Source: an uncultured Clostridia bacterium
GTDB taxonomy: Bacteria; Bacillota; Clostridia; Christensenellales; UBA1242
NCBI GenBank assembly: GCA_947366545.1
Contig: CANBAL010000003.1
Span: 55,492 to 119,491 of the forward strand
Length of the DNA stretch: 64,000 nt
Direction: 5' to 3'
Part shown: in pieces, positions 5,697 to 64,000 of the stretch
How positions within the stretch are numbered: the first letter of the stretch is position 1
Layout: each line of letters opens with the position of its first letter
Translations under genes and position numbers: made by a program
Notes under the pieces: model-generated
Seen by the model: the letters and a program-made list of their open reading frames with translations, nothing else
The model's database searches: none
What the model was told of the DNA's origin: nothing

Positions 5697-5722
5697 AGCC
5701 CTAGCGTTGCTAGGACTTTTTT
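5697..5722. terminator. Bidirectional rho-independent terminator between jag (+) and the convergent paralog pair (-)
   Basis: CCTAGC-GTT-GCTAGG hairpin flanked by an A-run and a T-run (aaaagccctagcgttgctaggactttttt). Confidence 0.6.
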
Positions 5723-6266: not shown

Positions 6267-6275
6267 ATTTCCTCC

Positions 6276-40303: not shown

Positions 40304-41368
40304 TTATTTATTCAGAAATTTCTGATAATTTATTCCTATTGCATCGTGCATTTCTGCTATTTTTTTATCGGCAATTTTTCTCATTTTTTTGCCATTTTCA
40401 AACAGCATTTTATATATGTCATCAATGTTGTTTTCAAGTTCTTTTCTTTTTGCTCTAATAGGCGTTAAAATTTCGTTAATTATATTGTTTAGGAATAATT
40501 TTACTTTCACATCACCAAGCCCGCCGCGTCTGTAGTGTGCCTTTAGTTCGTCTAATGATTTGTATTCGGGCAGATATTTTTCAAAATGTTCTGGTTTGCA
40601 GAAAGCGTCAAGGTAGGCAAAAACAGTATTGCCTTCCACTTTGCCGGGGTCAGAAACCTTTATATGACTCGGGTCAGTGTAGGCATTCATAATTTTTTGT
40701 TTTACAGCGGCTTCATCTTCATAGAGGTAGATGCAGTTTCCAAGCGATTTGCTCATTTTAAGTTTTCCGTCCAGCCCAGGAAGGCGGGCAACCACCTTGC
40801 TTTCAGGAATCATCCCCTTTGGCATTTTAAAAATAGGTGCATATTGAGTGTTGAAAGAGTGGGCAATTTCTCTCGCTTGTTCTATCATAGGTGCTTGATC
40901 GTCGCCAGCAGGTATAATAGTAGGGGAAAACAGCAAAATATCGGCCGCTTGGCTTATGGGATAGGTCAAAAAGCCTACTGGAAGAGAGGTTTCGTACCCT
41001 CTTTGTTTAATTTCTTCCTTTATAGTTGGATTTCTTTTTAAGCGAGATAATGTGACTAGGTTCATGAAATAGCCAGTCATTTCAAAAAGCTCGGGTACTT
41101 CGGATTGTATAAATATGGTTGCTTTTTTTGGATCAAGGCCAGCAGAAAGCAAATCAATCGCCACCTGCACTACACTGTTTTTAACCTTATCCACATTTTT
41201 TGCATTGTCTGTTAAGGCTTGAGTGTCTGCAATCATAACATAAAAGTTGTCATAATCCCCTTTTTCTTGTATGTCAAGTAGCAGTCTTATGGCACTTGAG
41301 TAGTGTCCTAAATGTAAATTTCCAGTAGGTCTTATACCAGTAAGTATAGTTTCAGCCATGGGTTTCAT
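40304..41368 (-). CDS. trpS: Tryptophan--tRNA ligase (start at 41368 or at the ATG at 41359)
   Basis: TGIRPTGNLHLGHY (HIGH-type motif), KMSKSLGN (KMSKS motif), 354 aa. Confidence 0.92.
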   Translation of the reverse strand: MKPMAETILTGIRPTGNLHLGHYSSAIRLLLDIQEKGDYDNFYVMIADTQALTDNAKNVDKVKNSVVQVAIDLLSAGLDPKKATIFIQSEVPELFEMTGYFMNLVTLSRLKRNPTIKEEIKQRGYETSLPVGFLTYPISQAADILLFSPTIIPAGDDQAPMIEQAREIAHSFNTQYAPIFKMPKGMIPESKVVARLPGLDGKLKMSKSLGNCIYLYEDEAAVKQKIMNAYTDPSHIKVSDPGKVEGNTVFAYLDAFCKPEHFEKYLPEYKSLDELKAHYRRGGLGDVKVKLFLNNIINEILTPIRAKRKELENNIDDIYKMLFENGKKMRKIADKKIAEMHDAIGINYQKFLNK

Positions 41369-41657: not shown

Positions 41658-41686
41658 TTGATTTGTCGACTTAAATGATATATAAT
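41658..41686 (+). promoter_or_regulatory. Candidate promoter of the giant gene (TTGATT-17 nt-TATAAT)
   Basis: TTGATT at 41658-41663 and TATAAT at 41681-41686, about 50 nt upstream of the ATG at 41737. Confidence 0.5.
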
Positions 41687-41736
41687 TTATATATAAATTT
41701 AAGGGGTACTTTGTGCCCAAAAAGAAGGAGCTATCC

Positions 41737-44700
41737 ATGAGAAAGAAATTGATGAAAGGTTTGTATGCTTTGGCTGTTATGCTGATGAGCGTTGGTGCTG
41801 TTGCCATGGTGCCAAGTTTGTCTGCAGAACCAGATGCGAGGGTAGAGGAAAGTGTTGAAACCTCTGCTACGCCAAGGGTGAGTACATACGCCGCGGAAGG
41901 TACCGAGGCGAGTGAGCCAACAGGCAACTGGGCAAATCAGTTTGATGCAAGTAGAGCGGAAAGTTCCACTCCTTTTGGGAACCCTGTTTCCCGCCCAGAC
42001 GGAAATTATTATCAAATTACTAACGCCGAGGACTTGGCGTTACTTTCATATCTTGTAGCCACCGCAACAAGCCCCACTTGGTTAAGTGCAAAATATGAAC
42101 TCACCGCTGACATCGACCTGGCTGGCTCCTACTGGACACCTATTGGTGTGTCACGATCATATCCTTTCTTTGGAACTTTTAATGGTAATTTCCACACTAT
42201 TAAGAACATTGTCATTGAAGGCTCGTCAGCCATTGCCGAAGGTGGCTTGTTTGGATATTTATCAGAAAATGCCTTTGTTTGCAACCTTACCGTTGATGGT
42301 TTTAGAAGTTATTTGGATGATAGCGATGTAGCATCATCAGGTGCAGTTGCGGGTTATGCTATTGGTGCCACCATTGCAAATGTGTATGCAAAAAATACAA
42401 ACGGGTTTTATGGAATTGCAGATTCCACTAATTGTATGATCTATCGTGGATGGAGTTCAAATGGCACATCAAATGACACATCTTTTTCTACAGTAGAAAG
42501 TACTCTGACTATCAATGTGGAATCTTCTAATACCTACGGCTACGCCATCATGTTCAACTTTAATGGCGGTGCAGTATACAAATATCAATCTAAGACAAGT
42601 CTCGGCTCTCTTCAATATAGCAGATATGGTGTGCTTATTAATTCCAGCGGTGCCGTTCAAACTGGCAAGGCTACCTATGGACCATTCCTTGGCACAAGGG
42701 CTGCTGTTATGTCTAATGCAAGCGGCGTGTTTGCAATCAAGGTGGGCAACGAATTTACAGTAAAGGCTGGCAGCGCCACCCTTACTTCAAGGAATTTGGG
42801 ATCCAACTTAACCGCCCTTGCTGGCACAGGTTATATCGCTACTTTAAACTGGACTCCAAAGAAATATACTTTAAATGCTTACTATAATTATTCACCTGAT
42901 ACTCCTATCGCGACAGAATTACAAAATGACGCAGTTTTCCCTACATCATTTAGTCGCGTGGGTTATACATTGGCAGGCAGATATACCAACGCTGCTTTAA
43001 CAACGGCACTAAGTGGACTTAATTTTGTAGGTGACACTGTTGCTCTCTCTGGCACTACTTATTCAATCTATTTAAAATGGAATCCATTAACTAATATTGG
43101 TTATAATGTGCATATGTTGTTAGACGGGCAATCACCTTCTGGAGAAAGCGGAAATGTTAACGCTTCTATTGCGTATGATAATTTGAAGATATTGGAAGGT
43201 AGTGGTACAGAAAACTTGGCAACCAACTCTGGTGATACAAAGGGTTTGAACTTTAACCTAGAAAATCACACCTCAAGTAATAGCGTAACAATTTCATTCG
43301 ATTTAAATTATGGCTTTGAATTTGGTGCTGGCACAAATTCTTCCGTGCTTTCAACTAGCCAAGTATTCAATAATGCCGGTGTATACCATGTGTTCGCAGC
43401 TGGCAGATATGACACTAAGGCGCCAGTTACTTCAGTGGTTGCAGTTAGTGGACAGAAGCGTACAATAACACTAAATAATATAGTTGGAAGTGGTGACATT
43501 TATATTGTTTTTAAAAGAGCAGAAGTAAAAGTTGCACTTGAAACAAGCAATGTAACAGTTGCTTTAACAAATAATAGCTCTTCTACCTCCTTGAATGCCG
43601 CAAAAACTGAACTTACCACAAAAGTAGGTGATGTATTTACTTTAACTTTTGATATTGATACAACAAAAGGTGCAAATCTATTTATCACCAATTATGGTGT
43701 TGTAGGTTTTAATAGATATGTAAATGCGGTAGATACAAGGACTTCTTTTGGTGGTGGTAGTTATGTAACAAAGTATACCGTATCGACAATAACAAACGAT
43801 TTCTTTAAAACAGATTCAGCAACTGGCAACAAAATTACTGCAATAGCCCGCGGGCTTGAATATACAGTAAATCTTACCATGACCCGTACTGAAAGTTATA
43901 CTGACAGCAGTAAATATGCTTTAGCATATGCTGCTCACAGTGTTGATCAAAACGGAACTTCTGGCAATAATACTCATAGAATTGATTTGGCTTCTGATGG
44001 TATGGGCAGAGTTTATATGTTATCTAACGATTACTATACTTTTGATAGTCTTTCACTAGTAACACAACATACAAACAGCGGAAATGATGGTACAAGCATA
44101 CCTATCACTATCGGCTCTGATAAACAAACAATTTTAAGTAATGGTTATGTTCAATATGCCTATGACTTTAAGGTTGAAGTACCAGACAACTTAGGGGAAG
44201 AAATACCTGAATATTACTTTACTTTTACTGCGAAGCCACAAGAATACTCTGTTGAAACAGAGATATATATAGATGGCGTAGAGGCTACAGAGGAGCAACT
44301 AACCGCTTATGGTTTAACAAGCACCCTTGGTAATGGAGTTGCAAAGCCTAATGATACCACTACAATCACCTTTAATCTTGGTGCAAATGGCACAAAATAT
44401 CTTGTTAACACTCCTGAAATCACATGCCAAAAAGCAAGTGAGAAAATAGGAAACACAGAAATAGATGTGCCTGGCGCTGTAGGGACAATGAGTGGTAACA
44501 CTTACACCTTTGGTACGAGAGATACTATTGTGCGAGCAGATTATACAACTAAGAAAATTACCCTTGATTTAAGTGCCACCGCAGTGGTAAAAGACTTGAA
44601 CGGTAAGAGTGGTGTGAATGGCGCTCTTGACGGCTTCACATATAATAAGGATAGCCTTGGTGCAACAGTAGGATATGACGCAGGATTTAACATTACTGTT

Positions 44701-47700
44701 GAAGGTGGGGCAAACGAGGGTAATATCAATATGATTACAGGGTATTACCTTGTAGGTTGGTATCTACAAAATGGAGACATCATACTCGATACTAATCTTG
44801 AAAATATTATTAATACTAATGCCGTACGAGATTTAGTTGCTGCAAATGAAGGCGAGACTTTAAGTTTGTCTGTACAGCCTGTAATTCAACAAAAAACAAT
44901 AAAGTTAAGCTTTGGTGAAGGAGCGGATGAACATAATCTAATTACACCAAAGAATGGCGATGCCGATAAAACAACCTATACATTTACTTACTATCATGCA
45001 CAAGAAACTTTTGATACAACAGCGGCATTCAGTTTGGCTGATATGGCGGGTCTCTTCCAAAAGATTGGTACCAGTGCTTTAAAATCTTGGCGAATGACAG
45101 AAAAAGATAATGTTTATGCTTTTAATGCTACCTCTGAATATATTGCTGCTTGGGATGATATTTATGGTGAGGGAAATGAAACCACCTTTAACTTTACACC
45201 AAATGAATGGACAAATATTGTATATACCGTTGCAATTGATGCAAGCAATTCAATTAGTGTAAGTTTAGGCAATACAATTTACCTTGTTTATGATAAAGCT
45301 GGCAATGCCACCTATCATAATGGCGAACTTAGTGTAGGTCTTACCGCTCGTGAAGGCTATACAGCAAATAAATTTAGTTTTAATGGTAATGGAAATACCG
45401 CAACAATATTAGGTAATTTATCAGGCCAAGAAAATGCATTTACGCTTTCTGAAGAAAATATTGTTGCTTTCCTTGCAAGTGAATTTCATTACCAAGCGGG
45501 CACTGCATTTACAATTACAACCAACTGGGAACCTGTAGTTTACAAGGTATTTATAAGTTATACAAATTACGAAAACTTTGCAACAAACGATAACATTCTG
45601 AAAGAAGAAGGTGAGAACGGCAGATATTATATCGAAGTGCCATATCAAACAGCAATGGCAGGACTTGCAGATTTTGAAACTGCACTCACAAGGTCAGGTT
45701 ATATTGTTTCTGGCTGGAGAAATATTACTGATAATGATACTATAACTATATATAATAAGAATAGTACATATGATAAGACGCATGATATTACAGTTAAAGC
45801 AATTTGGACTGTAGATACTGAAAATTCATATATCAATATCAATCTTGATGGAGATAAATCTGTATATTATAATGGCAAGGAGCAAACCCTTGGCACTGCC
45901 TCTATATTGCCTGCACTTGAGGATGGAAAACTTTATCTAAGCAATGGTGAAAAGGTAAATAAAGGTTATTGGGCTAAGGTTGATAACGACGGTAATATAC
46001 TTGAAAAATTTGCTGATAACCAGTTGGCACTTAGCCTTACTAATGTATCACAAAGCGGAAAGTATGTTTACGTTATCGAAGTTGTATCTGATACAAGTGT
46101 ATTGATTAGTGAAGGCTACACAGCAAAGAGTACTCCAATCACTATTGAAATCAAGAAAAATACCGTAGTGGTTGTTGGCTCAGCCCTTGAATCTTACTAT
46201 ACAGGCACCGAGAAATTTATTGCAACAGATACCAGCGTAGTGGGCGGACTATATTTCAAATATGACGCTGACGGCAATGAACTTAATATCACTGCTCCAA
46301 CAGTAGCATACGAAATTTCAAGCGACATTTTAACAGTAAAAGGCTTTAGACTTTTAAGCAGCAATGGTTATGCTGTAAGCGATAATGTAGAAATAGATTA
46401 TATTCTTGATACTCATAATTATGAAAACAACTTTACAAGTTTTGATAACTTTGGCACAGCAGAAGGTTATACTAGAGTTACTGGACAGTTCTATAACAAT
46501 TCTTATGACAAGGTTACGGTAACAAACGCTTATTTCTTAAGAGTAGAGGGTAATAAAATTGTACAAACCACCCTCGCTATAGATGTAAATGGTAGAGGCT
46601 TCTATATTGAAGGAATGCGTCATCAGCTTAAGTTGTCTTCTGATAAAATCAGCGTTTTACCAGACAAACTTATTTTAGATAAGTTAATCGCACTTCAACT
46701 TCTAAATGGTGGCGAAACCGCTGCGGCCGATACTTTTGCACTTACTCTCAGCGTTGAAACAAAGACTTCAAATGCTGACAATTATGATGATGTGTCTAAG
46801 TTTAACATTGATTATAGTATTAAATTAAATAACCAAGAGGTTAAAAACAATTTTGCAATAACAGTGACTGGCAACTATGTTATTGAAGATACAAACGCTT
46901 CAAATTCCTACTCATACAACTATCAAGTAGGTTATCTCACAGCAAATGAGGGAATGCTTCAAAGCATTACCACAAGTTATGCTGGTACTGAATACTATAA
47001 TATAAAGATAACACAAATTAAGATTGGAAGCGTAACAGTAAGTGGCGACCAAATTGGCGAGTTCTATATCTATACAACAGATGCAGGTGAGATGCTTGTA
47101 ACAATAGCGGGAAATGGAACAAAATCTCTTGATATCGTTGTACGACAAGGGTACGATATTACATTTACGGTTACTCCAGTGGCAGTACAAACCGATGTAA
47201 CATCTTCAAATCTTGTTTACTTAGGCCTTAATTCAAGAAATCTGTTGCCTGAAGATAGAGACGAACTTATTACCAATTTCACTGAAGTAAAAGACTTAGA
47301 TCAGCAAGTGGTGCTTTCAGGCTCTACTGGTGAAAGCAATGGTCAATATTATACACTTTTCACAGATGTAAAATATATCACCTTAGATAAGGGAAATGAT
47401 GATGCAAATAAGCAAATTAGTTTCTTCCTTTCAGCAGGCGATACTAGGGTCATGGCTAATCCAACATGGAAAGGCTTTGAGTTTACAGGATGGCAAATTC
47501 CAAATGGCAGCGGTGTAACAGCAGAGGACAATGGCGCCAATGGTTACAATATTCAAACAGTAGCCGGTAAGGCAGCAGTCTTAACTGCACAGTGGACACT
47601 ACTTGCTCCAACCGTAACTACACCTGCAACAAAGGAAATAGTTAAAAACGCAAGCGAGAGCGCACAAACAATCACTTTCACAGAAGTTGCTGGCACTATT

Positions 47701-50700
47701 ACTAATGAAAATAATGCAATCACATATACATATAGATGGTTTAAAGGTGAGACTTTAATTTCTGGACAGACTGGCAGAGATCTTAGTCTTAGTAAGGTAA
47801 CAACAAATGACGAGGGAAGTTATACTCTTCAAATTCTTGCTACTTACAATGGACAAACCGCAGAAGTTAATGTACCTTTCACATTAAAGGTTACTACTGT
47901 TAAGATTATTTCTTTCACTCTTGATAGAACTAGTGATACTTACAAGAACGAGGCTTTGTCACTTAACGCAAACCTCAATTTCAGCGTAGGTGCACCTCAA
48001 AACCTTAATATACTTAATAAACTTGGAAATGGTACGATTAAATTCACTATATCTTACAAGCAAAGTGCAGATAGTGAGGCAGTGGCCGTTTCTGAAATCA
48101 AGAATGCTGGAATTTATACTATCACACTTGTTCTTGATACTACAATTTATGAGTTTGATACTGATGTCGCAAACAGCCAAATTTTCACAGTAGGGCAATT
48201 TGAATACACTCTCAAAGAGAGCGATGTAAGCCTTTCTAAGGTGTTTGGTGAGTCCGACCCTAAACTTCAAACTATCTTAAACTTAAACCGTGAAGATGTC
48301 ACAGTTGAGTTTATTCGTGGGGCTGGTGAAGCAGTTGGTAATTATGCATTATCTAAAAAGTCTGTAAATAACAGCAATTATAATATTATAGTTCCTGCAA
48401 ACACATGGTTTAAGATTAATAAAACAACTTCAAATCTTTACCTATCCTTCTCTGGCAATTTGACTATGGTTTATAATGGCAAGACACCTGCAAGCATAGA
48501 GACTATTTACGATAATGGCTGGAAGGCTATTGTAAAAGACTCAGACAACAATGAACTTGCTCGCGTAAATATGAATCTTAAATCAGGAAAGGATGAAGAA
48601 AGCACATCTCCAGTGACAGTAAATCTTGACACTGCATTTAATGGGTTTATAATTACAATTAAAGAAATCAGCAAAAATGTTGGCGAATATGACCTTGAAG
48701 TTGGTGGCACCTCCTCTACCTATGCTGGCATATTCTTTGAAGGTACTGCACCTAAATTTACAATTACTAAGGCGACAATAGTTGTTAAGAATGTAGTTAA
48801 GACATTTGATGAAGCTGCAACCTTCACTTGGAACTCATTAGCCACTGATAATACTACAACTCTTACCGCAGAAAATCTTGTTGCGGGAGAGGATGTAACT
48901 ATATCTGGTAGTATGCTTGGCGTAACTGTAGGCACATATGGTGTGTCTAGTCTCACAGTCTCTGGTAAAGACTCTGGCAACTATAATGTGACTTGCAGCG
49001 AAAACGGAAGAATTAAGGTGTCCGATGCTACAATCGCATTAACAAATGGAACTGAAAACTTTAATTATGGACAAATAAAAGAATCAACTTTAAATTCACC
49101 AAGCACAATGAGAGATTTATTACAACTCGCTCTCACTGCAAATGGTAATGCTTCCGATGCATTCAATGCTGGTTATGTTACAATCAGCAGCGTAACAATA
49201 GCATCAGCTACATATTCAAAGGGCGGTAACTTAAATGTACTGCCAGAGGGTGGTAAGTATACAGTATCTATCACACTTACTTCTTCTAACTATACAAAAG
49301 CGAACGAAAACTTTAATGTTCAGATAACAATCAATACTATCACCATAGACCTAAGTGGAAACACAGTAACTAAGCAGTATGACGGAACTAACGCATTACC
49401 ACCTCTTACATGGAACATGGCAGGGCTACTCAGTGGAGACCAAGTAACTGTAACAGGTAACTACAATAGCACAGCAATTGGTACTGGCATCGCTCTTACT
49501 CTTAACCTTACTGGTGCTGATGCTGCCAACTATACAATTAAAACTCCTACACCTACTGGTAGCATTACTTCTAAAGAGTTTAAGTTTACACCTAACTATG
49601 CTACTATCGACTTTGCAAATGACGGAGTAACTAATCCAACAGGCGAAGAATTTACAGTTACCTACAACGGTAATTCTGCAACCTTCCTCTCTGCTATTGC
49701 AAGCCATTATGCAACCAGACAAGGATACACTCAAACAGGTTGGACATATGGTACAGATAACACTGACATTAAAACAGACTTCGATACCTTCCTCAGCGCA
49801 GTAGTAGAGGCAAATAAGAAAGGCACTCTTACACTTAACGCTGTATGGCAGATAGAAAAGAGAGAGGTTGTTGTTAATGTAAATAACGCTACCGTTAAAG
49901 TAGGGGATACTACTCTCACAAGCGGCACCGCTATCGAAGTGGATTACTTCTCTTCTATCACTCTTAATATTACTGGTAATGAGGGATATAAATATGTGAG
50001 AGAATCTCACACCGGCACCGCTACTCTTACTGAAACCGGTAAAAATACCCTTAACGCTACTGTAAATGTATCTAACATTACAAGCGCAGTTACAATCTCC
50101 CTCGTAATGGAAGAAATTACAGTAACCTTTAAAGCAACTAAGAACGATACTAATCTTCTTAATACAACCGTTACTGGCTGGGCTAGTGATATTACCCTTA
50201 ATTACTCCGCACTTAATGACCAAGTAGACAAACTTCTTACTACTATGACCGCTACCGCTGGTACATACACTCAAACTGCTTGGACTTTGGGTGCTAAGAA
50301 TGTTGCTCTTACAGATAACCTCCTTGCTTTAGTAAAAGAGGTTAAAGGTACTCTTACTGAGGATACAGTAGTAGAAACTCTTGCTCCTGTTTGGACTGGC
50401 GTTGCATACACTATCACATTCAATAAGAATGATGAGAACGCAACCTTCGTAACTGGCAGTGAGACAATAGACGCTACCTATGGCGAGCCTCTTACCGGCT
50501 TCCCAACAGTAGCTAAGACAGGTATGAATAATATCTGGAATACTAAGGCTGACGGCACAGGCACAACCTATGCAGAAGGAAATAAACTTACAACAAGAGG
50601 AACTTTAAACGGAGATAAATATTCTCTTACCCTCTATGCGATCTGGTCTAATGCTGATGTTGATGTAACTATCAACCCTAACATTAAGTCAGAAGGCAAT

Positions 50701-56700: not shown

Positions 56701-59700
56701 ATTAGTGGCAATGAAACTGACGGCTACTACATTACAGTAACAGGCGCTTCAATCATCGCTACTCCACTCACAATTACAGCAAAAGGTCAAGGCTTTGAAA
56801 CAGGCTCTAAACATATAGTAAATAACTATGATGTTACAACTGATACTGATGTTTCTCTAACAGGCTTCAATGTAACAATCACTCTTACAACAACAGGAAC
56901 TACTGGACCTCAAACATCATTCACAGAAGCCGACTTCACTGTAATGCGTGGAACAGAAGATGTAACTAGCAACTTTACTCATACTCTTGCTGGTATATAC
57001 ACAATTCTTTCAAAAGATAATACTTATCAGTATACCTTTGATGTTAAATATCTTACTTCATCAAATGGCAGCGTATCTCTTGAGAAAACAACAGGCTATA
57101 CAATTAAACTCTCCGCTCTTAAAGTTGGAGAAAACAATGTATACATTGGTGAAGATAGTTACTTTAACTACACCATTGGTGATACCCCTGTATTTACCCT
57201 CTCTGGTAATAACACAGATAAGGTTGTACTTGTTGTAAACGACGACTACACATTAACCTTTAATGCAACCATTAATGGAGCATTCACTAATGCTACCTTC
57301 TTAACATTTACAAGCGATACAGAAGTAGAGTCACTTAAATCTACTCTCGCTACTCTCACTGCACTCAACGATAAGACAATACCTCTCACTGGTACAACTT
57401 CTCAAACTCTTACCGCAGTTGTAACCGATGTTAAGGTTGTTACTCTTAACTATGGTGCATGCGAACAAGCCCCTACTACTGTCTACGCTAAGATAGGTGA
57501 GGGTACTACAATCACTCCTCCTACTTGGACAGGATTTACCCTTAAAGGTTGGTCAACAGTAAATGGTGTTACTATCTCTGGTGCAACACTTAGTGTTCCT
57601 ACCACCGCTAACATCCTTCCTGTTACCTTAACTGCTGAATGGGAAATCACTAAACCTACTACTTCTTTGAATAATCAAGAGATTACCATTAACGCAAGTG
57701 AAGGTAATGAAAATATCAACCTTGCTAGTGTAATAGGGGTTGTAACTGATGCAACAAGCGACCTTACATACACCTACTCTTGGTACAACGCTTCTAACGA
57801 ACTTCTTGCTTCGGGTGAAACCCTTACCGTTAAGGCTGACACCGATGCAGTCGGAGACTACTATGTAGTTGTTACCGCATCTAAAGCAGGACTTACTTCA
57901 GTAAATTCTGATCACATTGCTTTCACAATTAAAGTAACTAAGGCAACTTTAAATGTAACAATGGATACCGCTGGCTCCTTCGAGTACAACAACACGAACA
58001 GAACAAGCGATATCACATTCACAGTTAATGGTGAAAAGAAAACACTTGCTTCACTTCTTACTGCTGGTAATGTATACTTAACAATTAGTAACGGAACAAC
58101 TGATGTAATCGAGATTAAGAATGTGGGTACTTACACAATCTCTGTAAATGTAAATGATAAGATTTACAATACAGTTACAGATACCTTTACTGTAAAAGTA
58201 ACTGAGTACGATTACGAAATCAAAGACACCGATGTTGCTCATTTATGGAAATATGTTGGTGCAAGTGATCCTAATCTTGAAGCTACTCTTACATTAAATG
58301 GTGAAACACTTACCGTTTACTTCACAAGAGAGACAGGGGAAACTGCAGGCACTTACAAGCTTTCAATAGATACTACTAAGACTAACTACTCTAACTACAA
58401 CCTCTCTATTGATGAAAACAATAAGTACTTTGAAGTTAAAGCTTCTACAAATGTTCTAGTAATATCTTTAGCAAGCGAACTTAAAAAGACTTATGATAAA
58501 GAAACTGTATCACTTTCAACTAGATATGAAGGTGGTGTATGGAAACTTGTAGTAACAAGTGGAACAGACGAGATTATCTCTGACCTTACCTTCCAGACAC
58601 TTAATGGTGACACTCTTACTCCATTTACTTCTAATGAAAATACACTTGCTGGTGCAGTATTCTCACTTAAGAACCCAAGTGTAAACGCTGGAAGTTATGA
58701 GATAGAAGTAAAGGGTGGTACAAACTATCCAAATGCTGCCTTTAACACTACTACTTACTTTACAATAGACCAAAAAGGTTTAGTAGTAACAAAGGTAACT
58801 AAAGTATTCGATAGAACTAACACTTTTGATAACTCTAATGTAACTTACACAGGCGTAGTTGCTGGTGATAGCATCACACTTACTGGTACCTTTGATAGTG
58901 AACATGCTGGTGACAGAACTGCAACCTTTACTATCAACGGAGACGCTAAGGCTAACTACAAAGTAGTAGAAGGCACTGGCTATACTGCAACAATTACTAC
59001 TTCTAGTGAAGCAGTAGACCTTACAGTAACTAAGACAACCTTTAACTATGGCGAGATTACTGATGGCCTTAACAAAGACCAACTCCTTGCTCTCCTTGGT
59101 GACTTTACTCTTACTATCGGCTCTGGCTATACTAACGCTATCGCTGACGGCTATGTTACAATTTCTAATGTAACCCTTGATAACCCTCAGTACTCTTCAT
59201 CTCATCACCTTAAAGTAGGCAGTTATATTATCACTATTGCTCTTGATTCATCAGATTACTCTACCGCTGATATCTTCTCTAAACCTTTCAATATCACTGT
59301 TAATACTATTAATATCGATTTGAGTAGTACAGTGGTAGACAAAGTGTACGACAACACAACTGATATTATAAATGCTACTTGGGACTTGAGTGCTGTACTT
59401 GCGGGAGATAATGTATCAGTAAGTGCAAGTTATCAAGACAAGACCGTTGGAGAGAACAAAACACTTAATGTTGAATTTACTGGATTGGATGCAGGAAACT
59501 ATCAAATCTCAAATAAGCCAACCGGAAGAATTACTGCAACTTCAGTAAGACTTGTATTCAACAATACCGCACTTGCTGACTTTGTAAACGATAAAGAGAT
59601 TTACGCATCTAAGACTTATGCAGATATCACTTATCCAACCACCGACGCGGCTGGCACTCTTGGACTTCTTACTAAGCCAACAAGAGAAGGTTATCATGTG

Positions 59701-62700
59701 ACAAACTGGGCTTATGAAGTAAGTACAGGACGCTACGAAGCAATAACCGAGGCAAACATAATAGCAGTTCTTGACAAAGCGTATGGAAATGGTAAAGAAC
59801 TTACTATCTACGCTGAGTGGGAAAAGAATGATATTATAATAAGCATCACCTCTGTACTTGGTGAAGTTGCTAAAGCGGGAGATGTGGCAGCAGACACCTA
59901 TACAATTAAATACTATGATGACATTACCTTCACAGTTTTAGGAAATGTAGGTTACAAATTAGATGATGTAACTATCACTTCGGGCACTATTGTAGGTGGA
60001 CTTGAGAAATCTGGAGTAGGAACAAGAAAGGACGGTACATTCACCTTACATAAAGTTGCTTCAGATATCGCTTTAACAGTAGAATACTTGGAGATAAAAA
60101 TCACTGTAAATATTGACAAGAATATTCCACAGTACACTCAAGAGGTGGGTGAGGCATGGACAAGCGAAACCTTTGTATACTCAATGGACGCAAAACTTGC
60201 TGAACTTTTACCTGAGATTAAAGTACTTAGCGGAACATACACTCAAACTAAGTGGACTGCAACATTTGGCACCGATATTGATGTGGCGCTTGATGACAGC
60301 AGACTTCTTAAAGACATAATCGGCGAAGAGATAAACAGTGACGAAGACGCCGTTATCACCTTTAAGGCAGAGTGGGCAGGTGTAAATTACACAATAACAT
60401 TTAATAAAAACGATGTTGATGCAACTATAGAAGGCGATACGACAATAAATGTTGTTTATGGTCAATCTATGGCAGACAAGACATTCCCTACTGTTACAAA
60501 GATTGGTATGAAAAACACTTGGAACACAAGCGCAAATGGTAGTGGAAAATATTACACAAATGAAGACATCTTCCAAACTAGAGACGAAACAAGTGAAAGC
60601 AATTTTGCTGTAACATTATATGCTATCTGGGCTAATGAAGATTACACCTTCACAGTTGAGATAGACGACAGCCATGTTAAGTCAGTATTGTCTGGCGGAG
60701 TAGAAGTAACCAATGGAAACTTCACACTTCGATATGGCACTTCAATAAGTTTTGTAGTTACTGTTGACGAAGGTTACTTAATAGCATGCAACGAGGCTGA
60801 GTTTGCTGGCGTTGCCACTATTGAAAAACTTGGAAAGACATTAAAGATTACAAATCTTTCAGTAAATGATAAAGTATTCAAAATCTTTGCAATAGCACAA
60901 GAAAATACTATGACAGTGAATACAAATCTCTCAACACTTACAAATGTAACGGTGGGAGGCGAGGTGGTTACTGCAACTGGAAATACTTTCAAAGCAGACA
61001 CTGGCAAAGAAATTGTACTTACATTTACAGCAGAAAAGGGTTATACCTTTGATAAAGATTCACTTGTAAATGTACAAGGCGGAATCATTGTAAGAGAGGA
61101 AACAGACGGTGTCCTTAAAATAACTTGGACTGGATTTACTTCTGATTCTATAATCACTGTTACACCTTCAGCAGTAGCTAATGTGGTAACATTAAAAGAT
61201 AGCTCTAATTATGTAAGCTCACTTTACATCAACTCTACATTACTTCCTGCAAGCGGTGCAACATACAACGCAATGACAGGCAGTGAACTTACAGTATCTG
61301 TACTCCTTAAGTATGGCTTTAAGAACATAACGCTTAACCTAGTAAATGATTTAAGTGAGATTATTACTAGTGAAAACATAGTAATTACTAAACTTGGAGA
61401 AGAGACTTGGGATGAAAGTGCAAAAGCATACAGACAATCCTTTACAATAACTGGATTTGTAGATGCGTTTAATATTAAAGTAAGTGCAGAAGCAAGAGAT
61501 TACAATTTTGCGATTTCTTCTGGCAATACCGCAATGGGTAGTGTAACTCCAACAACTGCTGCTTTAAAATTTGGTGAAAGCTTAAATCTTACTGCAACAG
61601 TAAACAGTGGTTTTGCATTCATTGGCTGGTTTGTAGGTGAAAAGGCTATTTCACTTGAAAGTGAATATACATTTGTACTTAATGAATCAAACAAGACTTA
61701 TCTTGAGTCGGGAGACCCTATTGAAATAGTTGCTAACTTTGACTACTCTGAAGCTGAATTTATAATAAGCACAGAGGGTAATGGTAGTCTAGTTTACAAG
61801 ATAGGTGACGGCAACGAAATAGTCATCAACCAAAATGGTGAAAACAAGTCAATAGTTTCCTTCAACACATTACTTACTATTAAAACAGTACCTAACAGAG
61901 GATACGCACCTGAGTTTAAGTTCTATAGTGTTGACGGAAGTCAAATGACTTACACTAATTACACTTATGATGAAAGTACAGGCATCATGGTAATCCGTGC
62001 ACTTGCTGACGGGCCTAGACATATTAAGGTTGAATATGTTGCATGCAAGGCATCTATTAAAGTAGAAGCGGGCGTACAAATCAACTACCAGATGAGTTAT
62101 GGCACCGATATCGGCGGAACAATTCACTGGTCAGATGAAAATGGTAATCTTAAAACTGTAACGGGTGGCATTGATGGCGTTTCATATACAATCGAGACGG
62201 CTACAGGAAACAAAGAGTACTTTGTAGTAAATAGAAATTCTGGATTCTCATTCACAATGTCTTCTAAGAATGCTGGTGTGATTATCAACAGATTAAACAA
62301 AGACGGCAAGGTGATTTTCGAAGTTGACGGAATTGTCGGCGATATTGAGGTTGAGGCAGTCTTTACTGCGGAAGACAACAACATTGATGTATACTTTGAA
62401 GACGAAAATCATGAAAGAGTACTTGCTGGTAAGATTTCAGTTTCAACATCTGGCTATGTTGTAGCATCCGGAAACGACTCCTCTTCAGTTAAAATAAACG
62501 CTTTAACTGGTCAGAGCGTAAGCATGGAGGTGTCTACAAATCTTACCTTTAGTTTTGATGAAGAAAGAGAAAGAATTTTTGATGCAAATGATGCAATTAA
62601 GGATAAAGTTATAGTAGGAAACCCTACAGATGACAATTTCGCATTGGGTTATACTAGAAAGGTAAGCGTAACTATTACGGATATTGATAGCAATGGTTAC

Positions 62701-64000
62701 ATCGTATTCTATGTAAAACCTAAGGCCTTCAAGATACAGTTCATAAATGAACATGAAGAATTTGGACCTATAATTGAAGGCGTTAAGTATGGTTATGACA
62801 TTCCTACTTACAACCCAGAAGAAATTATTCCTGAAAGCAAAGAAGGGTATCTATTCAAGGGGTACTATACTAAGGAACTTGGACAGGGAAATCCTTACTT
62901 TGGTGAAAATGGTCAAGCAGTATCAAAGTGGTTTGAAACAGGTTATGATTGGAATGGTAGAGAGTATGAAACTGCTCATCACTATGATCCTAACACAGAA
63001 ACCTTTACACTTTATGCAGCATGGTACTACTCAAAAGAGAAGATCACTATCGACTTTATTCCAGATACCCTAAAGAATAAAGTAAGTGGTATCAAGATTG
63101 GAGATTTGGTTACTCCAACAAGCAGCAATACTACAGTATGGACCACTGGCGACAATCTCTTCTATGCAGAGGTTAAGTCTGGTGTCGAAATGCTTATCAC
63201 AGCATACAAATTTGAAGGATATGAATTCCAGTACTGGTATATTGACAGAGGAAACGGAGATGTATTACGAATCCCTGGAGAAACCTATTCATATACTTCT
63301 CAAAATGGCGAAATCCTCATCAGTGCCGTATATAAGGCAGAGTTTGACTTAGAGGCCTATGATGAGACTGCACAAGAAGTTTCAAATGTTTGCGGTGAGG
63401 TATACTTAAATACTGTTGGAAATAACAAGGGTTATTATGATACCGAAGAGGCAATCACAATATACGCAGTAGAAAACAAGGGCTATATGTTTAAAGGCTG
63501 GTTTGATACCAAGGCTAACGACTTCTTAAGAGATGATAACGATAACATCATTCTTGGACAGAAAGAAGGTAAAGTTTATGCTTATACCTTTGAAAGTGCT
63601 GATCCTCTCTATTTAAGAGCAGTATTTGAAGGTAAGTCAGTTACAATTCAAGTTTCAGATTTTGTAAGTCATGGTAATATTATTACTGTTAAGTTGAATG
63701 ACACCGTAATTGAAAAATCTGAATGGAATAATTTTGTAGCTCGAATCGGTGATCAAATCACTATTGAGCTTACAGTACAAAATGGTTATGGTGTAAATTG
63801 GGACGGCCCAACCTTTACTGGTGGGTATGGAGTTTACACTTACAGAGTAAGTGCTGTAGATATACTTTCCGATGAGGAAGAGATTATATCAATTAGACCT
63901 ATTGCTGACCCAAGTCCTTTGAAATACTTTGTAGAAGTAACGGTGGAAGGCAAGACATATAGAGAAACTGACGAACTTGATATCGCTGGCAAGGTAACTT
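41737..64000 (+). CDS. Giant secreted surface protein, at least 7,421 aa and 3'-open at the window edge. N-terminal signal peptide, GLUG-type beta-helix-like module, then long arrays of Listeria-Bacteroides-type repeats and YDG/MBG-like adhesin modules
   Basis: ATG at 41737 with SD GAAGGAG. Hand translation of frame 1 over 41737-43100, 45421-50700 and 59101-64000 shows no stop, and copy 2 is base-identical to read copy-1 sequence only over 54191-55689. About 43100-45420 and 50700-54190 (hence 55690-59100) were not translated codon by codon; there I infer openness from the absence of any other long ORF and from protein-like spot translations. The ORF track lists only short antisense or frame-2 ORFs here. 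Signal peptide MRKKLMKGLYALAVMLMSVGAVAMVPSLSA/EP. Motifs: ITNAEDLALLSYL..ADIDLAG..WTPIG..FFGTFNGNFHTIKNI..GGLFGY; many GYT(F/Q)xGW...TLxAxW units; ..KQYDGT...GD.V.V.G......G......L.G.DA.NY.I modules. Confidence 0.9.
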   Translation, partial: MRKKLMKGLYALAVMLMSVGAVAMVPSLSAEPDARVEESVETSATPRVSTYAAEGTEASEPTGNWANQFDASRAESSTPFGNPVSRPDGNYYQITNAEDLALLSYLVATATSPTWLSAKYELTADIDLAGSYWTPIGVSRSYPFFGTFNGNFHTIKNIVIEGSSAIAEGGLFGYLSENAFVCNLTVDGFRSYLDDSDVASSGAVAGYAIGATIANVYAKNTNGFYGIADSTNCMIYRGWSSNGTSNDTSFSTVESTLTINVESSNTYGYAIMFNFNGGAVYKYQSKTSLGSLQYSRYGVLINSSGAVQTGKATYGPFLGTRAAVMSNASGVFAIKVGNEFTVKAGSATLTSRNLGSNLTALAGTGYIATLNWTPKKYTLNAYYNYSPDTPIATELQNDAVFPTSFSRVGYTLAGRYTNAALTTALSGLNFVGDTVALSGTTYSIYLKWNPLTNIGYNVHMLLDGQSPSGESGNVNASIAYDNLKILEGSGTENLATNSGDTKGLNFNLENHTSSNSVTISFDLNYGFEFGAGTNSSVLSTSQVFNNAGVYHVFAAGRYDTKAPVTSVVAVSGQKRTITLNNIVGSGDIYIVFKRAEVKVALETSNVTVALTNNSSSTSLNAAKTELTTKVGDVFTLTFDIDTTKGANLFITNYGVVGFNRYVNAVDTRTSFGGGSYVTKYTVSTITNDFFKTDSATGNKITAIARGLEYTVNLTMTRTESYTDSSKYALAYAAHSVDQNGTSGNNTHRIDLASDGMGRVYMLSNDYYTFDSLSLVTQHTNSGNDGTSIPITIGSDKQTILSNGYVQYAYDFKVEVPDNLGEEIPEYYFTFTAKPQEYSVETEIYIDGVEATEEQLTAYGLTSTLGNGVAKPNDTTTITFNLGANGTKYLVNTPEITCQKASEKIGNTEIDVPGAVGTMSGNTYTFGTRDTIVRADYTTKKITLDLSATAVVKDLNGKSGVNGALDGFTYNKDSLGATVGYDAGFNITVEGGANEGNINMITGYYLVGWYLQNGDIILDTNLENIINTNAVRDLVAANEGETLSLSVQPVIQQKTIKLSFGEGADEHNLITPKNGDADKTTYTFTYYHAQETFDTTAAFSLADMAGLFQKIGTSALKSWRMTEKDNVYAFNATSEYIAAWDDIYGEGNETTFNFTPNEWTNIVYTVAIDASNSISVSLGNTIYLVYDKAGNATYHNGELSVGLTAREGYTANKFSFNGNGNTATILGNLSGQENAFTLSEENIVAFLASEFHYQAGTAFTITTNWEPVVYKVFISYTNYENFATNDNILKEEGENGRYYIEVPYQTAMAGLADFETALTRSGYIVSGWRNITDNDTITIYNKNSTYDKTHDITVKAIWTVDTENSYININLDGDKSVYYNGKEQTLGTASILPALEDGKLYLSNGEKVNKGYWAKVDNDGNILEKFADNQLALSLTNVSQSGKYVYVIEVVSDTSVLISEGYTAKSTPITIEIKKNTVVVVGSALESYYTGTEKFIATDTSVVGGLYFKYDADGNELNITAPTVAYEISSDILTVKGFRLLSSNGYAVSDNVEIDYILDTHNYENNFTSFDNFGTAEGYTRVTGQFYNNSYDKVTVTNAYFLRVEGNKIVQTTLAIDVNGRGFYIEGMRHQLKLSSDKISVLPDKLILDKLIALQLLNGGETAAADTFALTLSVETKTSNADNYDDVSKFNIDYSIKLNNQEVKNNFAITVTGNYVIEDTNASNSYSYNYQVGYLTANEGMLQSITTSYAGTEYYNIKITQIKIGSVTVSGDQIGEFYIYTTDAGEMLVTIAGNGTKSLDIVVRQGYDITFTVTPVAVQTDVTSSNLVYLGLNSRNLLPEDRDELITNFTEVKDLDQQVVLSGSTGESNGQYYTLFTDVKYITLDKGNDDANKQISFFLSAGDTRVMANPTWKGFEFTGWQIPNGSGVTAEDNGANGYNIQTVAGKAAVLTAQWTLLAPTVTTPATKEIVKNASESAQTITFTEVAGTITNENNAITYTYRWFKGETLISGQTGRDLSLSKVTTNDEGSYTLQILATYNGQTAEVNVPFTLKVTTVKIISFTLDRTSDTYKNEALSLNANLNFSVGAPQNLNILNKLGNGTIKFTISYKQSADSEAVAVSEIKNAGIYTITLVLDTTIYEFDTDVANSQIFTVGQFEYTLKESDVSLSKVFGESDPKLQTILNLNREDVTVEFIRGAGEAVGNYALSKKSVNNSNYNIIVPANTWFKINKTTSNLYLSFSGNLTMVYNGKTPASIETIYDNGWKAIVKDSDNNELARVNMNLKSGKDEESTSPVTVNLDTAFNGFIITIKEISKNVGEYDLEVGGTSSTYAGIFFEGTAPKFTITKATIVVKNVVKTFDEAATFTWNSLATDNTTTLTAENLVAGEDVTISGSMLGVTVGTYGVSSLTVSGKDSGNYNVTCSENGRIKVSDATIALTNGTENFNYGQIKESTLNSPSTMRDLLQLALTANGNASDAFNAGYVTISSVTIASATYSKGGNLNVLPEGGKYTVSITLTSSNYTKANENFNVQITINTITIDLSGNTVTKQYDGTNALPPLTWNMAGLLSGDQVTVTGNYNSTAIGTGIALTLNLTGADAANYTIKTPTPTGSITSKEFKFTPNYATIDFANDGVTNPTGEEFTVTYNGNSATFLSAIASHYATRQGYTQTGWTYGTDNTDIKTDFDTFLSAVVEANKKGTLTLNAVWQIEKREVVVNVNNATVKVGDTTLTSGTAIEVDYFSSITLNITGNEGYKYVRESHTGTATLTETGKNTLNATVNVSNITSAVTISLVMEEITVTFKATKNDTNLLNTTVTGWASDITLNYSALNDQVDKLLTTMTATAGTYTQTAWTLGAKNVALTDNLLALVKEVKGTLTEDTVVETLAPVWTGVAYTITFNKNDENATFVTGSETIDATYGEPLTGFPTVAKTGMNNIWNTKADGTGTTYAEGNKLTTRGTLNGDKYSLTLYAIWSNADVDVTINPNIKSEGNNTHITRVTVDGTAITAPTTNTLNFASQRVIVVSLDPGYELDTTETKLTAGKGQVKIEGNTITLSAVSEPSTLNIVAKAKTYTVTLNATYATVNPTSIQVVFDSTMTNLPTPTRDGYTFKSWTDSEGNEYSTTTTYTVAGDITLNATWTVKTDKYVTANIGTDFEAFYNGANQQVASATLTAGGKTITVGETLTNGEKVTSLYYEVKNGETYSKVADGATLTLKDVTNTSYRLAVVIEDLLTSTSYTAYLAEKNVNIKAAAIEVTGENLVSYYTGTNAFVGTDTATQGTLQYVNGETPVTEITISRVVFEGTTFNVATGLTVRYYLNIEKDLLANYSDISGNETDGYYITVTGASIIATPLTITAKGQGFETGSKHIVNNYDVTTDTDVSLTGFNVTITLTTTGTTGPQTSFTEADFTVMRGTEDVTSNFTHTLAGIYTILSKDNTYQYTFDVKYLTSSNGSVSLEKTTGYTIKLSALKVGENNVYIGEDSYFNYTIGDTPVFTLSGNNTDKVVLVVNDDYTLTFNATINGAFTNATFLTFTSDTEVESLKSTLATLTALNDKTIPLTGTTSQTLTAVVTDVKVVTLNYGACEQAPTTVYAKIGEGTTITPPTWTGFTLKGWSTVNGVTISGATLSVPTTANILPVTLTAEWEITKPTTSLNNQEITINASEGNENINLASVIGVVTDATSDLTYTYSWYNASNELLASGETLTVKADTDAVGDYYVVVTASKAGLTSVNSDHIAFTIKVTKATLNVTMDTAGSFEYNNTNRTSDITFTVNGEKKTLASLLTAGNVYLTISNGTTDVIEIKNVGTYTISVNVNDKIYNTVTDTFTVKVTEYDYEIKDTDVAHLWKYVGASDPNLEATLTLNGETLTVYFTRETGETAGTYKLSIDTTKTNYSNYNLSIDENNKYFEVKASTNVLVISLASELKKTYDKETVSLSTRYEGGVWKLVVTSGTDEIISDLTFQTLNGDTLTPFTSNENTLAGAVFSLKNPSVNAGSYEIEVKGGTNYPNAAFNTTTYFTIDQKGLVVTKVTKVFDRTNTFDNSNVTYTGVVAGDSITLTGTFDSEHAGDRTATFTINGDAKANYKVVEGTGYTATITTSSEAVDLTVTKTTFNYGEITDGLNKDQLLALLGTLTLTIGSGYTNAIADGYVTISNVSITSATYSKGGNLNVLPEGGKYTVSITLTSSNYTKANENFNVQITINTITIDLSGNTVTKQYDGTNALPPLTWNMAGLLSGDQVTVTGNYNSTAIGTGIALTLNLTGADAANYTIKTPTPTGSITSKEFKFTPNYATIDFANDGVTNPTGEEFTVTYNGNSATFLSAIASHYATRQGYTQTGWTYGTDNTDIKTDFDTFLSAVVEANKKGTLTLNAVWQIEKREVVVNVNNATVKVGDTTLTSGTAIEVDYFSSITLNITGNEGYKYVRESHTGTATLTETGKNTLNATVNVSNITSAVTISLVMEEITVTFKATKNDTNLLNTTVTGWASDITLNYSALNDQVDKLLTTMTATAGTYTQTAWTLGAKNVALTDNLLALVKEVKGTLTEDTVVETLAPVWTGVAYTITFNKNDENATFVTGSETIDATYGEPLTGFPTVAKTGMNNIWNTKADGTGTTYAEGNKLTTRGTLNGDKYSLTLYAIWSNADVDVTINPNIKSEGNNTHITRVTVDGTAITAPTTNTLNFASQRVIVVSLDPGYELDTTETKLTAGKGQVKIEGNTITLSAVSEPSTLNIVAKAKTYTVTLNATYATVNPTSIQVVFDSTMTNLPTPTRDGYTFKSWTDSEGNEYSTTTTYTVAGDITLNATWTVKTDKYVTANIGTDFEAFYNGANQQVASATLTAGGKTITVGETLTNGEKVTSLYYEVKNGETYSKVADGATLTLKDVTNTSYRLAVVIEDLLTSTSYTAYLAEKNVNIKAAAIEVTGENLVSYYTGTNAFVGTDTATQGTLQYVNGETPVTEITISRVVFEGTTFNVATGLTVRYYLNIEKDLLANYSDISGNETDGYYITVTGASIIATPLTITAKGQGFETGSKHIVNNYDVTTDTDVSLTGFNVTITLTTTGTTGPQTSFTEADFTVMRGTEDVTSNFTHTLAGIYTILSKDNTYQYTFDVKYLTSSNGSVSLEKTTGYTIKLSALKVGENNVYIGEDSYFNYTIGDTPVFTLSGNNTDKVVLVVNDDYTLTFNATINGAFTNATFLTFTSDTEVESLKSTLATLTALNDKTIPLTGTTSQTLTAVVTDVKVVTLNYGACEQAPTTVYAKIGEGTTITPPTWTGFTLKGWSTVNGVTISGATLSVPTTANILPVTLTAEWEITKPTTSLNNQEITINASEGNENINLASVIGVVTDATSDLTYTYSWYNASNELLASGETLTVKADTDAVGDYYVVVTASKAGLTSVNSDHIAFTIKVTKATLNVTMDTAGSFEYNNTNRTSDITFTVNGEKKTLASLLTAGNVYLTISNGTTDVIEIKNVGTYTISVNVNDKIYNTVTDTFTVKVTEYDYEIKDTDVAHLWKYVGASDPNLEATLTLNGETLTVYFTRETGETAGTYKLSIDTTKTNYSNYNLSIDENNKYFEVKASTNVLVISLASELKKTYDKETVSLSTRYEGGVWKLVVTSGTDEIISDLTFQTLNGDTLTPFTSNENTLAGAVFSLKNPSVNAGSYEIEVKGGTNYPNAAFNTTTYFTIDQKGLVVTKVTKVFDRTNTFDNSNVTYTGVVAGDSITLTGTFDSEHAGDRTATFTINGDAKANYKVVEGTGYTATITTSSEAVDLTVTKTTFNYGEITDGLNKDQLLALLGDFTLTIGSGYTNAIADGYVTISNVTLDNPQYSSSHHLKVGSYIITIALDSSDYSTADIFSKPFNITVNTINIDLSSTVVDKVYDNTTDIINATWDLSAVLAGDNVSVSASYQDKTVGENKTLNVEFTGLDAGNYQISNKPTGRITATSVRLVFNNTALADFVNDKEIYASKTYADITYPTTDAAGTLGLLTKPTREGYHVTNWAYEVSTGRYEAITEANIIAVLDKAYGNGKELTIYAEWEKNDIIISITSVLGEVAKAGDVAADTYTIKYYDDITFTVLGNVGYKLDDVTITSGTIVGGLEKSGVGTRKDGTFTLHKVASDIALTVEYLEIKITVNIDKNIPQYTQEVGEAWTSETFVYSMDAKLAELLPEIKVLSGTYTQTKWTATFGTDIDVALDDSRLLKDIIGEEINSDEDAVITFKAEWAGVNYTITFNKNDVDATIEGDTTINVVYGQSMADKTFPTVTKIGMKNTWNTSANGSGKYYTNEDIFQTRDETSESNFAVTLYAIWANEDYTFTVEIDDSHVKSVLSGGVEVTNGNFTLRYGTSISFVVTVDEGYLIACNEAEFAGVATIEKLGKTLKITNLSVNDKVFKIFAIAQENTMTVNTNLSTLTNVTVGGEVVTATGNTFKADTGKEIVLTFTAEKGYTFDKDSLVNVQGGIIVREETDGVLKITWTGFTSDSIITVTPSAVANVVTLKDSSNYVSSLYINSTLLPASGATYNAMTGSELTVSVLLKYGFKNITLNLVNDLSEIITSENIVITKLGEETWDESAKAYRQSFTITGFVDAFNIKVSAEARDYNFAISSGNTAMGSVTPTTAALKFGESLNLTATVNSGFAFIGWFVGEKAISLESEYTFVLNESNKTYLESGDPIEIVANFDYSEAEFIISTEGNGSLVYKIGDGNEIVINQNGENKSIVSFNTLLTIKTVPNRGYAPEFKFYSVDGSQMTYTNYTYDESTGIMVIRALADGPRHIKVEYVACKASIKVEAGVQINYQMSYGTDIGGTIHWSDENGNLKTVTGGIDGVSYTIETATGNKEYFVVNRNSGFSFTMSSKNAGVIINRLNKDGKVIFEVDGIVGDIEVEAVFTAEDNNIDVYFEDENHERVLAGKISVSTSGYVVASGNDSSSVKINALTGQSVSMEVSTNLTFSFDEERERIFDANDAIKDKVIVGNPTDDNFALGYTRKVSVTITDIDSNGYIVFYVKPKAFKIQFINEHEEFGPIIEGVKYGYDIPTYNPEEIIPESKEGYLFKGYYTKELGQGNPYFGENGQAVSKWFETGYDWNGREYETAHHYDPNTETFTLYAAWYYSKEKITIDFIPDTLKNKVSGIKIGDLVTPTSSNTTVWTTGDNLFYAEVKSGVEMLITAYKFEGYEFQYWYIDRGNGDVLRIPGETYSYTSQNGEILISAVYKAEFDLEAYDETAQEVSNVCGEVYLNTVGNNKGYYDTEEAITIYAVENKGYMFKGWFDTKANDFLRDDNDNIILGQKEGKVYAYTFESADPLYLRAVFEGKSVTIQVSDFVSHGNIITVKLNDTVIEKSEWNNFVARIGDQITIELTVQNGYGVNWDGPTFTGGYGVYTYRVSAVDILSDEEEIISIRPIADPSPLKYFVEVTVEGKTYRETDELDIAGKVT
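49202..54190 (+). repeat. Copy 1 of the 4,989-bp (1,663-codon) in-frame tandem duplication inside the giant gene
   Basis: 49202-54089 is identical to 54191-59078 in a line-by-line comparison by eye. The antisense ORFs in the track are identical pairs offset by exactly 4,989 nt. Confidence 0.95.
54191..59179 (+). repeat. Copy 2 of the 4,989-bp in-frame tandem duplication
   Basis: Same as copy 1. The first mismatch is at 54090/59079, and there are six mismatches in the last 93 aligned bp (54090, 54112, 54113, 54115, 54129, 54162). Similarity ends at 59171. Confidence 0.95.

Follow-up and report, generated by a model that had tools for sequence, protein, structure and literature searches.

A giant gene near the chromosomal origin of an uncultured Clostridia bacterium likely encodes a membrane-anchored, adhesin-like surface fibre

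We analysed a 64,000-nucleotide stretch of DNA from an uncultured Clostridia bacterium of the lineage UBA1242 (GenBank assembly GCA_947366545.1, contig CANBAL010000003.1, positions 55,492 to 119,491; hereafter, the window) and found that its last 22 kb belong to one giant gene, which starts at an ATG at position 41737 and runs off the end of the window. The analysis confirmed this gene as real, intact and uninterrupted over at least 7,421 codons. Based on its sequence and that of its relatives, we consider it likely that the gene encodes a giant adhesin-like surface fibre of a Firmicute, about 7,670 residues long and anchored in the membrane with type I topology. The source organism is most likely a spore-forming Firmicute.

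Computational translation of the frame of the ATG over 41737-63999 gave 7,421 codons and not a single stop. At the stop probability set by the regional base composition (0.068 per codon, about one in 15 codons), some 503 stops would be expected by chance, and the log10 probability of meeting none is about -226. The other five frames hold 234-904 stops each, with a longest open run of 300 codons, and the nearest in-frame stop upstream of the ATG is a TAA at 41683. A preliminary description of this DNA had taken the frame to be open from 41737 to 64000 although about 43.1-45.4, 50.7-54.2 and 55.7-59.1 kb had not been read codon by codon; these stretches proved to be open as well. The open reading frame (ORF) list supplied with the sequence shows only short ORFs over these 22 kb, because the program that made it skips by design any ORF that runs off the sequence end, in line with the earlier suggestion that the missing stop explained the gap. 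The start signals that had been proposed, a Shine-Dalgarno sequence and a promoter, are both present:

41658 to 41686, plus strand: sigma-70-like promoter, TTGATT-17-TATAAT, agreeing with the consensus at 10 of 12 positions (a consensus match only)
41724 to 41730, plus strand: Shine-Dalgarno sequence GAAGGAG, 6 nt 5' of the ATG
41737 to 64000, plus strand: 5' part of the giant ORF, 7,421 codons with zero stops, running off the window

The complete relatives of the encoded protein were retrieved by an exhaustive HMMER search with a 1,200-residue N-terminal query. Word-indexed protein searches gave four matches and one match, namely two N-terminal fragments encoded beside trpS (P0001 and P0002) and two proteins that share only the N-terminal head module described below. 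In the exhaustive search, P0131 (6,183 residues, without its first ~47 because of a contig end), P0132 (6,306), P0133 (4,500) and P0134 (6,239) matched along the whole query. From the N-terminus to the window end, the relatives align collinearly with the window protein at 26-76% identity, and P0131, the closest complete one, is 44-76% identical to it. Among 1.84 billion representative proteins, matches that extend past the head module come from just five to ten clusters or so, all of them from uncultured Firmicutes. Collinear homology and adjacency to trpS unite P0131-P0134, a further complete relative (L001) and the fragments P0001 and P0002 in one family, which is rare and unnamed; the window gene is a further member of the established class of giant surface proteins. 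No paper on its domain combination was found in the literature. In the scaffold that carries P0002 (L006, 12100-12280), the ORF stops at 12115 and a new ORF in another frame, starting at 12100, runs off the scaffold; this break reflects a frameshift or else an error in sequencing this metagenomic copy.

The protein falls into the following parts, given with their coordinates in the window:

41737 to 41826, plus strand: Sec-type signal peptide (residues 1-30), consisting of MRKKLMK, the hydrophobic core GLYALAVMLMSVGAVAMV and PSLSA/EP, in n-h-c layout
41827 to 45630, plus strand: non-repeated N-terminal region (residues 31-1298), without Pfam match, 51% identical to P0131
41929 to 42456, plus strand: head module (residues ~65-240), beta-helix-like, with the motif ADIDLAG..WTPIG..FGTFNGNFHTIKNI..GGLFGY, placed by homology, AlphaFold2 and Foldseek
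45631 to 50988, plus strand: super-repeat A (residues ~1299-3084), from self-comparison, with Flg_new, MBG_2 and YDG units; boundaries approximate
50989 to 55977, plus strand: super-repeat 2, a chimera of the head of B (residues 3085-4151) and a copy of the tail of A (residues 4152-4747)
55978 to 60966, plus strand: super-repeat B (residues ~4748-6410), from self-comparison and alignment to relatives
60967 to 63999, plus strand: non-repeated C-terminal region (residues 6411-7421), containing Flg_new_2 and Flg_new units; conservation within the protein is highest here

The N-terminus is signal-peptide-like and of the Sec type, as had been claimed (..VPSLSA/EP), and it is conserved in the relatives, which share the start MKKxxxKGLY... 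Residues 4-30 hold the sole 19-residue window with a Kyte-Doolittle mean above 1.6 in all 7,421 residues. No internal transmembrane segment was found by the same measure, and the bulk of the chain is predicted to be extracytoplasmic. The product is rich in Thr (15%), Asn (8%) and Gly (8%), and contains only nine Cys residues.

Four Pfam families match the chain above their cut-offs: Flg_new (38.9 and 47.4 bits, cut-off 27), Flg_new_2, MBG_2 and YDG. NCBIfam added TIGR02543 alone (23.1 bits, cut-off 20.95); a ThiS match from the same library was below threshold and judged spurious. Profiles iterated within the family brought the count to about ten Flg_new, two Flg_new_2, three MBG_2 and six YDG units, which together cover about 1,300 of the 7,421 residues (~18% of the chain). 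The preliminary description, which spoke of kilobases of Listeria-Bacteroides-type repeats with YDG/MBG-like modules, was thus right about the families and overstated their extent. Sequence searches of the PDB with three segments of the product returned zero matches. An AlphaFold2 model of part of the stalk (residues 1340-1940) is all-beta, and its Foldseek matches are exclusively Ig-like and all weak; since this model and that of residues 1-500 were built on alignments of seven to eight sequences, their fold matches count as weak corroboration only. Taken together, the Flg_new, Flg_new_2, MBG_2 and YDG units and the three super-repeats of about 1,700 residues give the protein the repetitive beta-sandwich stalk of a fibrillar adhesin.

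The head at the N-terminus has a much wider distribution. In the exhaustive search, its residues ~90-220 matched about 1,900 representative proteins, and it is 38-48% identical to two of them, P0003 and P0004 (42-48% to P0004 alone). In P0004, Pfam places the matching module in Peptidase_M26_N, and GLUG motifs come after it. By sequence, the head is clearly homologous to the ADIDL...W.PIG...F.G.F.G.GH.I module of GLUG and M26_N proteins. The Pfam Glug model itself scored 11.4 bits at residues 201-221 (cut-off 20.5, E = 0.48), and gave no match at E <= 1 when the product was scanned in 851-residue pieces. Hence, of the GLUG-type module claimed earlier, the homology stands and the family assignment stays below threshold. 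The model of residues 1-500 has a mean predicted local distance difference test score (pLDDT) of 48, but reaches ~75-88 over residues 70-235. Compared with PDB folds, this model comes closest to 3n6z (E = 1.2e-3, probability 1.00), which is a putative IgA1 protease from Bacteroides ovatus; next come right-handed beta-helix proteins (tailspikes, pectinases) and the pneumococcal IgA1 protease. We therefore describe the head as beta-helix-like with modest confidence.

These same resemblances could suggest that the protein serves primarily to carry an enzyme, such as an IgA1-protease-like peptidase of the M26 type or a beta-helix protein that degrades glycans. Both the N-terminal region of M26 IgA1 proteases and beta-helix depolymerases are similar to the head, and the roughly 80% of the chain that is unannotated could conceal a catalytic domain. 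However, the region matched in M26 proteins is their non-catalytic N-terminal part. Moreover, the HExxH motif of M26 metalloendopeptidases is absent from all 7,421 residues, no M26 match was returned by Pfam, neither Pfam nor NCBIfam reported any peptidase or glycosidase family, and PDB sequences gave no match. We consider this alternative unlikely, and favour a primarily adhesin-like protein.

The body of the protein is made of three super-repeats, of which two are ancient and the third stems from a recent tandem duplication. Self-comparison showed that A (residues ~1299-3084) and B (residues 3085-4151 plus 5815-6410) are 30-40% identical. The in-window duplication with identical copies noted earlier was borne out, and its elements are these:

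49202 to 54190, plus strand: copy 1 of the tandem duplication, 4,989 nt
54191 to 59179, plus strand: copy 2 of the tandem duplication, 4,989 nt
54160 to 54197, plus strand: recombinant joint from B-type to A-type sequence, with the shared microhomology GGYTATGTTACAAT, identified by aligning the left, middle and right boundaries with one another

The period of 4,989 nt equals 1,663 codons and is in frame. Comparison of 49202-54182 with 54191-59171 gave 99.88% identity, and within copy 1 the 4,885 nt from 49205 to 54089 are 100% identical to copy 2. All six mismatches lie at 59079-59151 in copy 2, within 73 nt that in copy 1 come just 5' of the joint (54090-54197 for mismatch cluster and joint together); three are synonymous, and the others alter two codons. 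At the joint, near 54190, four to five bases match neither parental flank. The mismatch cluster and these odd bases could reflect error-prone repair, a short conversion tract or polishing noise, which are indistinguishable here. The breakpoints fall at equivalent, homologous sites in A and B (residue 2489 corresponds to residue 5814), so that the third super-repeat is a chimera in which reading frame and domain register are kept. The sequence shows it to be the product of unequal recombination between these sites at a microhomology of 14 nt.

The third super-repeat is missing from the collinear relatives P0131, P0132, P0134 and L001. In the alignment with P0131, residues 4201-5799 of the window protein map back onto the region already matched by residues 2503-4304, which shows that P0131 lacks it. 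P0133 has a single super-repeat, the relatives carry one or two, and none of them contains paralogous segments more than 44% identical. As a separate observation, GC skew is negative (-0.09 to -0.14) at 50000-58000, inside the duplicated super-repeat region, and positive in the remaining window; this probably reflects amino-acid and codon composition rather than replication.

Such perfect identity over 4,885 nt raises the question of whether the second unit is an assembly artefact, the true gene having one 4,989-nt unit and about 6,000 codons like its relatives. That all relatives have two or fewer super-repeats would fit this explanation, as would the six clustered mismatches and the unmatched bases at the repeat edge, if these are polishing noise. 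On the other hand, the joint near 54190 fuses B-type to A-type sequence and therefore requires at least two copies, and, with no more than about 14 nt common to the two parental sequences there, it is not something that overlap or k-mer assemblers invent. Furthermore, the joint keeps the frame and connects sites of A and B that are homologous; real unequal recombination would be expected to do so, a random chimera would not. For these reasons an artefact seems to us rather improbable, and we take the duplication as genuine.

The ORF is open to the end of the window, and the C-terminus therefore lies beyond it, as had been stated. Residue 7400 aligns with residue 5911 of the 6,183 in P0131, which places about 251 residues beyond the window and gives a full product of about 7,670 residues. 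In all five complete relatives (P0131-P0134 and L001) the chain ends with a second head-like module (pattern ..DL.F/L.GKYW.PIG....F.G..), a single transmembrane helix, an Arg/Lys run and a terminal [DE]ELANS. In one of them this cassette has the following position:

11200 to 11947 of the relative L001: C-terminal cassette

The ELANS tail was absent from five other head-module proteins that we inspected. By extension from the relatives, the missing ~251 residues would carry a second head-like module, a transmembrane helix and a basic cytoplasmic tail with [DE]ELANS. A scan for the continuation of the gene with the last 400 residues gave only a 44%-identical locus of a metagenome-assembled genome (MAG) among genome contigs, and nothing among metagenome contigs. 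The MnmG of the window is recorded from a contig of 120,377 nt, so the source should contain the end of the gene.

In Firmicutes, sortase or S-layer homology (SLH) anchoring is commonly expected, and many large Firmicute adhesins are sortase substrates. Because the C-terminus of the window gene is outside the window, one may ask whether it is instead a cell-wall-anchored adhesin (LPXTG/sortase, SLH or choline-binding). All five complete relatives, however, end in the transmembrane helix, Arg/Lys run and ELANS tail, including P0131, whose last 1,600 aligned residues share 64-76% identity with the window protein. In none of the five is the helix preceded by a conserved LPXTG-like motif, and Pfam returned neither an SLH nor a choline-binding match for the window's portion of the product. 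Thus, while the anchor itself lies outside the window, among the options listed in the preliminary description (LPXTG, SLH, choline-binding or other) the relatives point to the last, and anchoring in the cell wall appears very unlikely compared with anchoring in the membrane.

Divergence from the DNA of P0131 amounts to 0.16-0.34 per site at non-synonymous positions (pN) and is saturated, at about 0.70-0.74, at synonymous ones (pS). In the C-terminal region (residues 6411-7421), which is 64-76% identical to P0131, pN is 0.16-0.20. Since pN is far below the saturated pS, these values indicate that purifying selection acts throughout the chain. That the gene is decaying or unexpressed and just happens to remain open, for which the frame break at 12.1 kb in the P0002 gene on L006 might speak, is extremely improbable: its 22 kb contain not one stop, the family is collinear and conserved in its termini and synteny, non-synonymous divergence lies far below the synonymous one, and a good promoter-like site with a Shine-Dalgarno sequence is present.

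Considering all the above, the earlier view of a very large, secreted and repeat-rich adhesin-like protein of a Firmicute is supported by the uninterrupted frame, the signal-like N-terminus, the stalk-type Pfam domains, the collinear relatives of 4,500-6,306 residues, and a pN far lower than pS. In the model that we propose, the Sec machinery would export the chain, and the signal peptide would be cut after SLSA. A C-terminal transmembrane helix would then keep the fibre in the cytoplasmic membrane in type I topology, while the long beta-sandwich array would project the N-terminal head and the unique region of about 1,300 residues away from the cell. There, judging from the domain types, head and unique region may attach to a ligand, for instance a glycan, a surface or a second cell. 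The copy number of the super-repeat (one, two or three across the family) would set the reach of the fibre. A domain of about 90-100 residues spans about 4 nm, and a back-of-envelope calculation puts the length of the fibre on the order of 0.3 micrometres.

Several points weigh against this model. The C-terminus of the protein is predicted by extension from relatives with 35-76% identity, and binding, ligand and adhesion are deduced solely from domain types. About 80% of the protein has no match in the profile libraries (Pfam, NCBIfam) or in PDB sequences. Both AlphaFold2 models are poor overall (mean pLDDT 48 and 51) and their fold matches weak, the best having E = 1.2e-3. Lastly, the head does not reach the gathering threshold of the GLUG family (PF07581).

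The window, which contains zero N bases, covers the replication-origin region of the chromosome, with dnaA, dnaN, yidC, jag, mnmE, mnmG, rsmG, parA and dnaB, and also carries several tRNA synthetase genes, spoIIP and three tRNA genes. It opens inside dnaA (1-1331), for which the listed ORF has 436 residues from an internal TTG compared with 449 in the DnaA of relatives; hence the window was cut from within a longer contig, rather than being a genome start rotated to dnaA. The giant gene is chromosomal, about 40 kb from dnaA, and its upstream neighbour is divergent and conserved across relatives:

40304 to 41368, minus strand: trpS, class I Trp/Tyr tRNA synthetase gene

The loci L006, L008 and L009 of relatives also have trpS next to the giant gene, and the P0134 gene, present on four contigs, is each time flanked by trpS and a ypsA-like gene. 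By MnmG, the nearest organisms are metagenome bins with 86-91% identity; the contig of the closest one (P0007, 91% identical) stops short of the giant gene. A 263-kb contig of a related MAG is syntenic with the window from dnaA onward, its orthologue of the giant gene ending at about 262,950. An origin in a mobile element or prophage was rejected on account of the housekeeping nature of the origin region and the conserved synteny.

A second very large gene (21330-30689, plus strand) encodes 3,119 residues. Its N-terminus is lipoprotein-like (...SLFAC), and Pfam gave no more than a weak fn3 match; an orthologue of 3,156 residues is found at the equivalent position in the related MAG contig L003. 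Kinship between this gene and the giant gene was rejected, as BLASTP detected no similarity; together, the two make up about half of the window. Three ORFs amid the housekeeping genes (30723-31556, 35196-36083 and 36080-37135, plus strand, 277-351 residues) had no Pfam match at E <= 0.001.

The closest parallels in architecture are the fibrillar (stalk-and-tip) surface adhesins of Gram-positive bacteria, such as the SasG/Aap-type rods, and Ebh of Staphylococcus aureus, a protein of about 10,000 residues with a Sec signal and a C-terminal membrane anchor. Like these, the giant protein combines a Sec signal and a distinct N-terminal region with a huge, repetitive, beta-rich stalk whose length varies through repeat copy number, and its relatives share with Ebh the C-terminal transmembrane anchor. 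Domains of the Ebh, FIVAR, GA or G5/E type, on the other hand, were not detected in it; its stalk is built from Flg_new, MBG_2, YDG and unclassified modules. No sequence similarity to characterised adhesins was observed, as the PDB sequence searches returned no match.

Two further groups share modules with the giant protein. With the GLUG/M26_N proteins (PF07581, PF05342; PDB 3n6z, 7uvl) it has in common the ADIDL..W.PIG..F.G.F.G.GH.I..GLFGY module at 38-48% identity; it differs from them in that Glug is below threshold, Peptidase_M26_N is not reported and HExxH is absent. Whereas P0135 and P0143 carry tandem head-plus-GLUG arrays, the giant family has one head per end, the C-terminal one being observed in the relatives. 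Several units of the Listeria InlB B-repeat and Listeria-Bacteroides type (PF09479, PF18998, TIGR02543) exceed the curated cut-offs, but such repeats make up less than 10% of the giant protein, which, unlike InlB-type proteins, shows in the window's portion no leucine-rich-repeat internalin domain and no GW or LPXTG anchor.

Among bacterial proteins longer than 5,000 residues, surface and attachment proteins form the second major class after non-ribosomal peptide synthetases and polyketide synthases (PMC11573180), and both in length and in class the giant protein resembles these surveyed proteins. It falls far below the record holders of more than 30,000 residues, which have been reported in bacteria including Firmicutes, and, unlike the giants of Omnitrophota, it has no SecA-like, dockerin or multiple-transmembrane features (bioRxiv 10.1101/2023.11.21.568195). 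The same surveys note that assembly fragmentation hides giant genes (PMC11573180; bioRxiv 10.1101/2023.11.21.568195).

Altogether, these findings do not overturn the current understanding, giant repeat-rich surface proteins being an already established class. What distinguishes the gene described here is its rare family, the predicted transmembrane helix with ELANS tail where a Firmicute would usually be expected to use sortase or SLH anchoring, a head-like module not just at the N-terminus but, judging from the relatives, also at the C-terminus, and the very fresh, cleanly resolved 5-kb expansion. With about 7,670 codons (~23 kb), it would be among the larger bacterial genes and is probably the largest in its genome. 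ORF listers that discard ORFs at sequence ends miss exactly such giant genes. Its duplication offers a natural example of length change in a fibre protein, an in-frame gain of 5 kb that is still 100% identical over 4,885 nt. More speculatively, and with a low chance of being right, the invariant C-terminal cassette might act as a sorting or retention signal of a kind not described before, and the recombination might be a programmed tuning of fibre length. If so, a dedicated cytoplasmic or membrane partner would read the signal and handle the export or positioning of fibres of several thousand residues, and recombination between super-repeats would adjust their length within populations.

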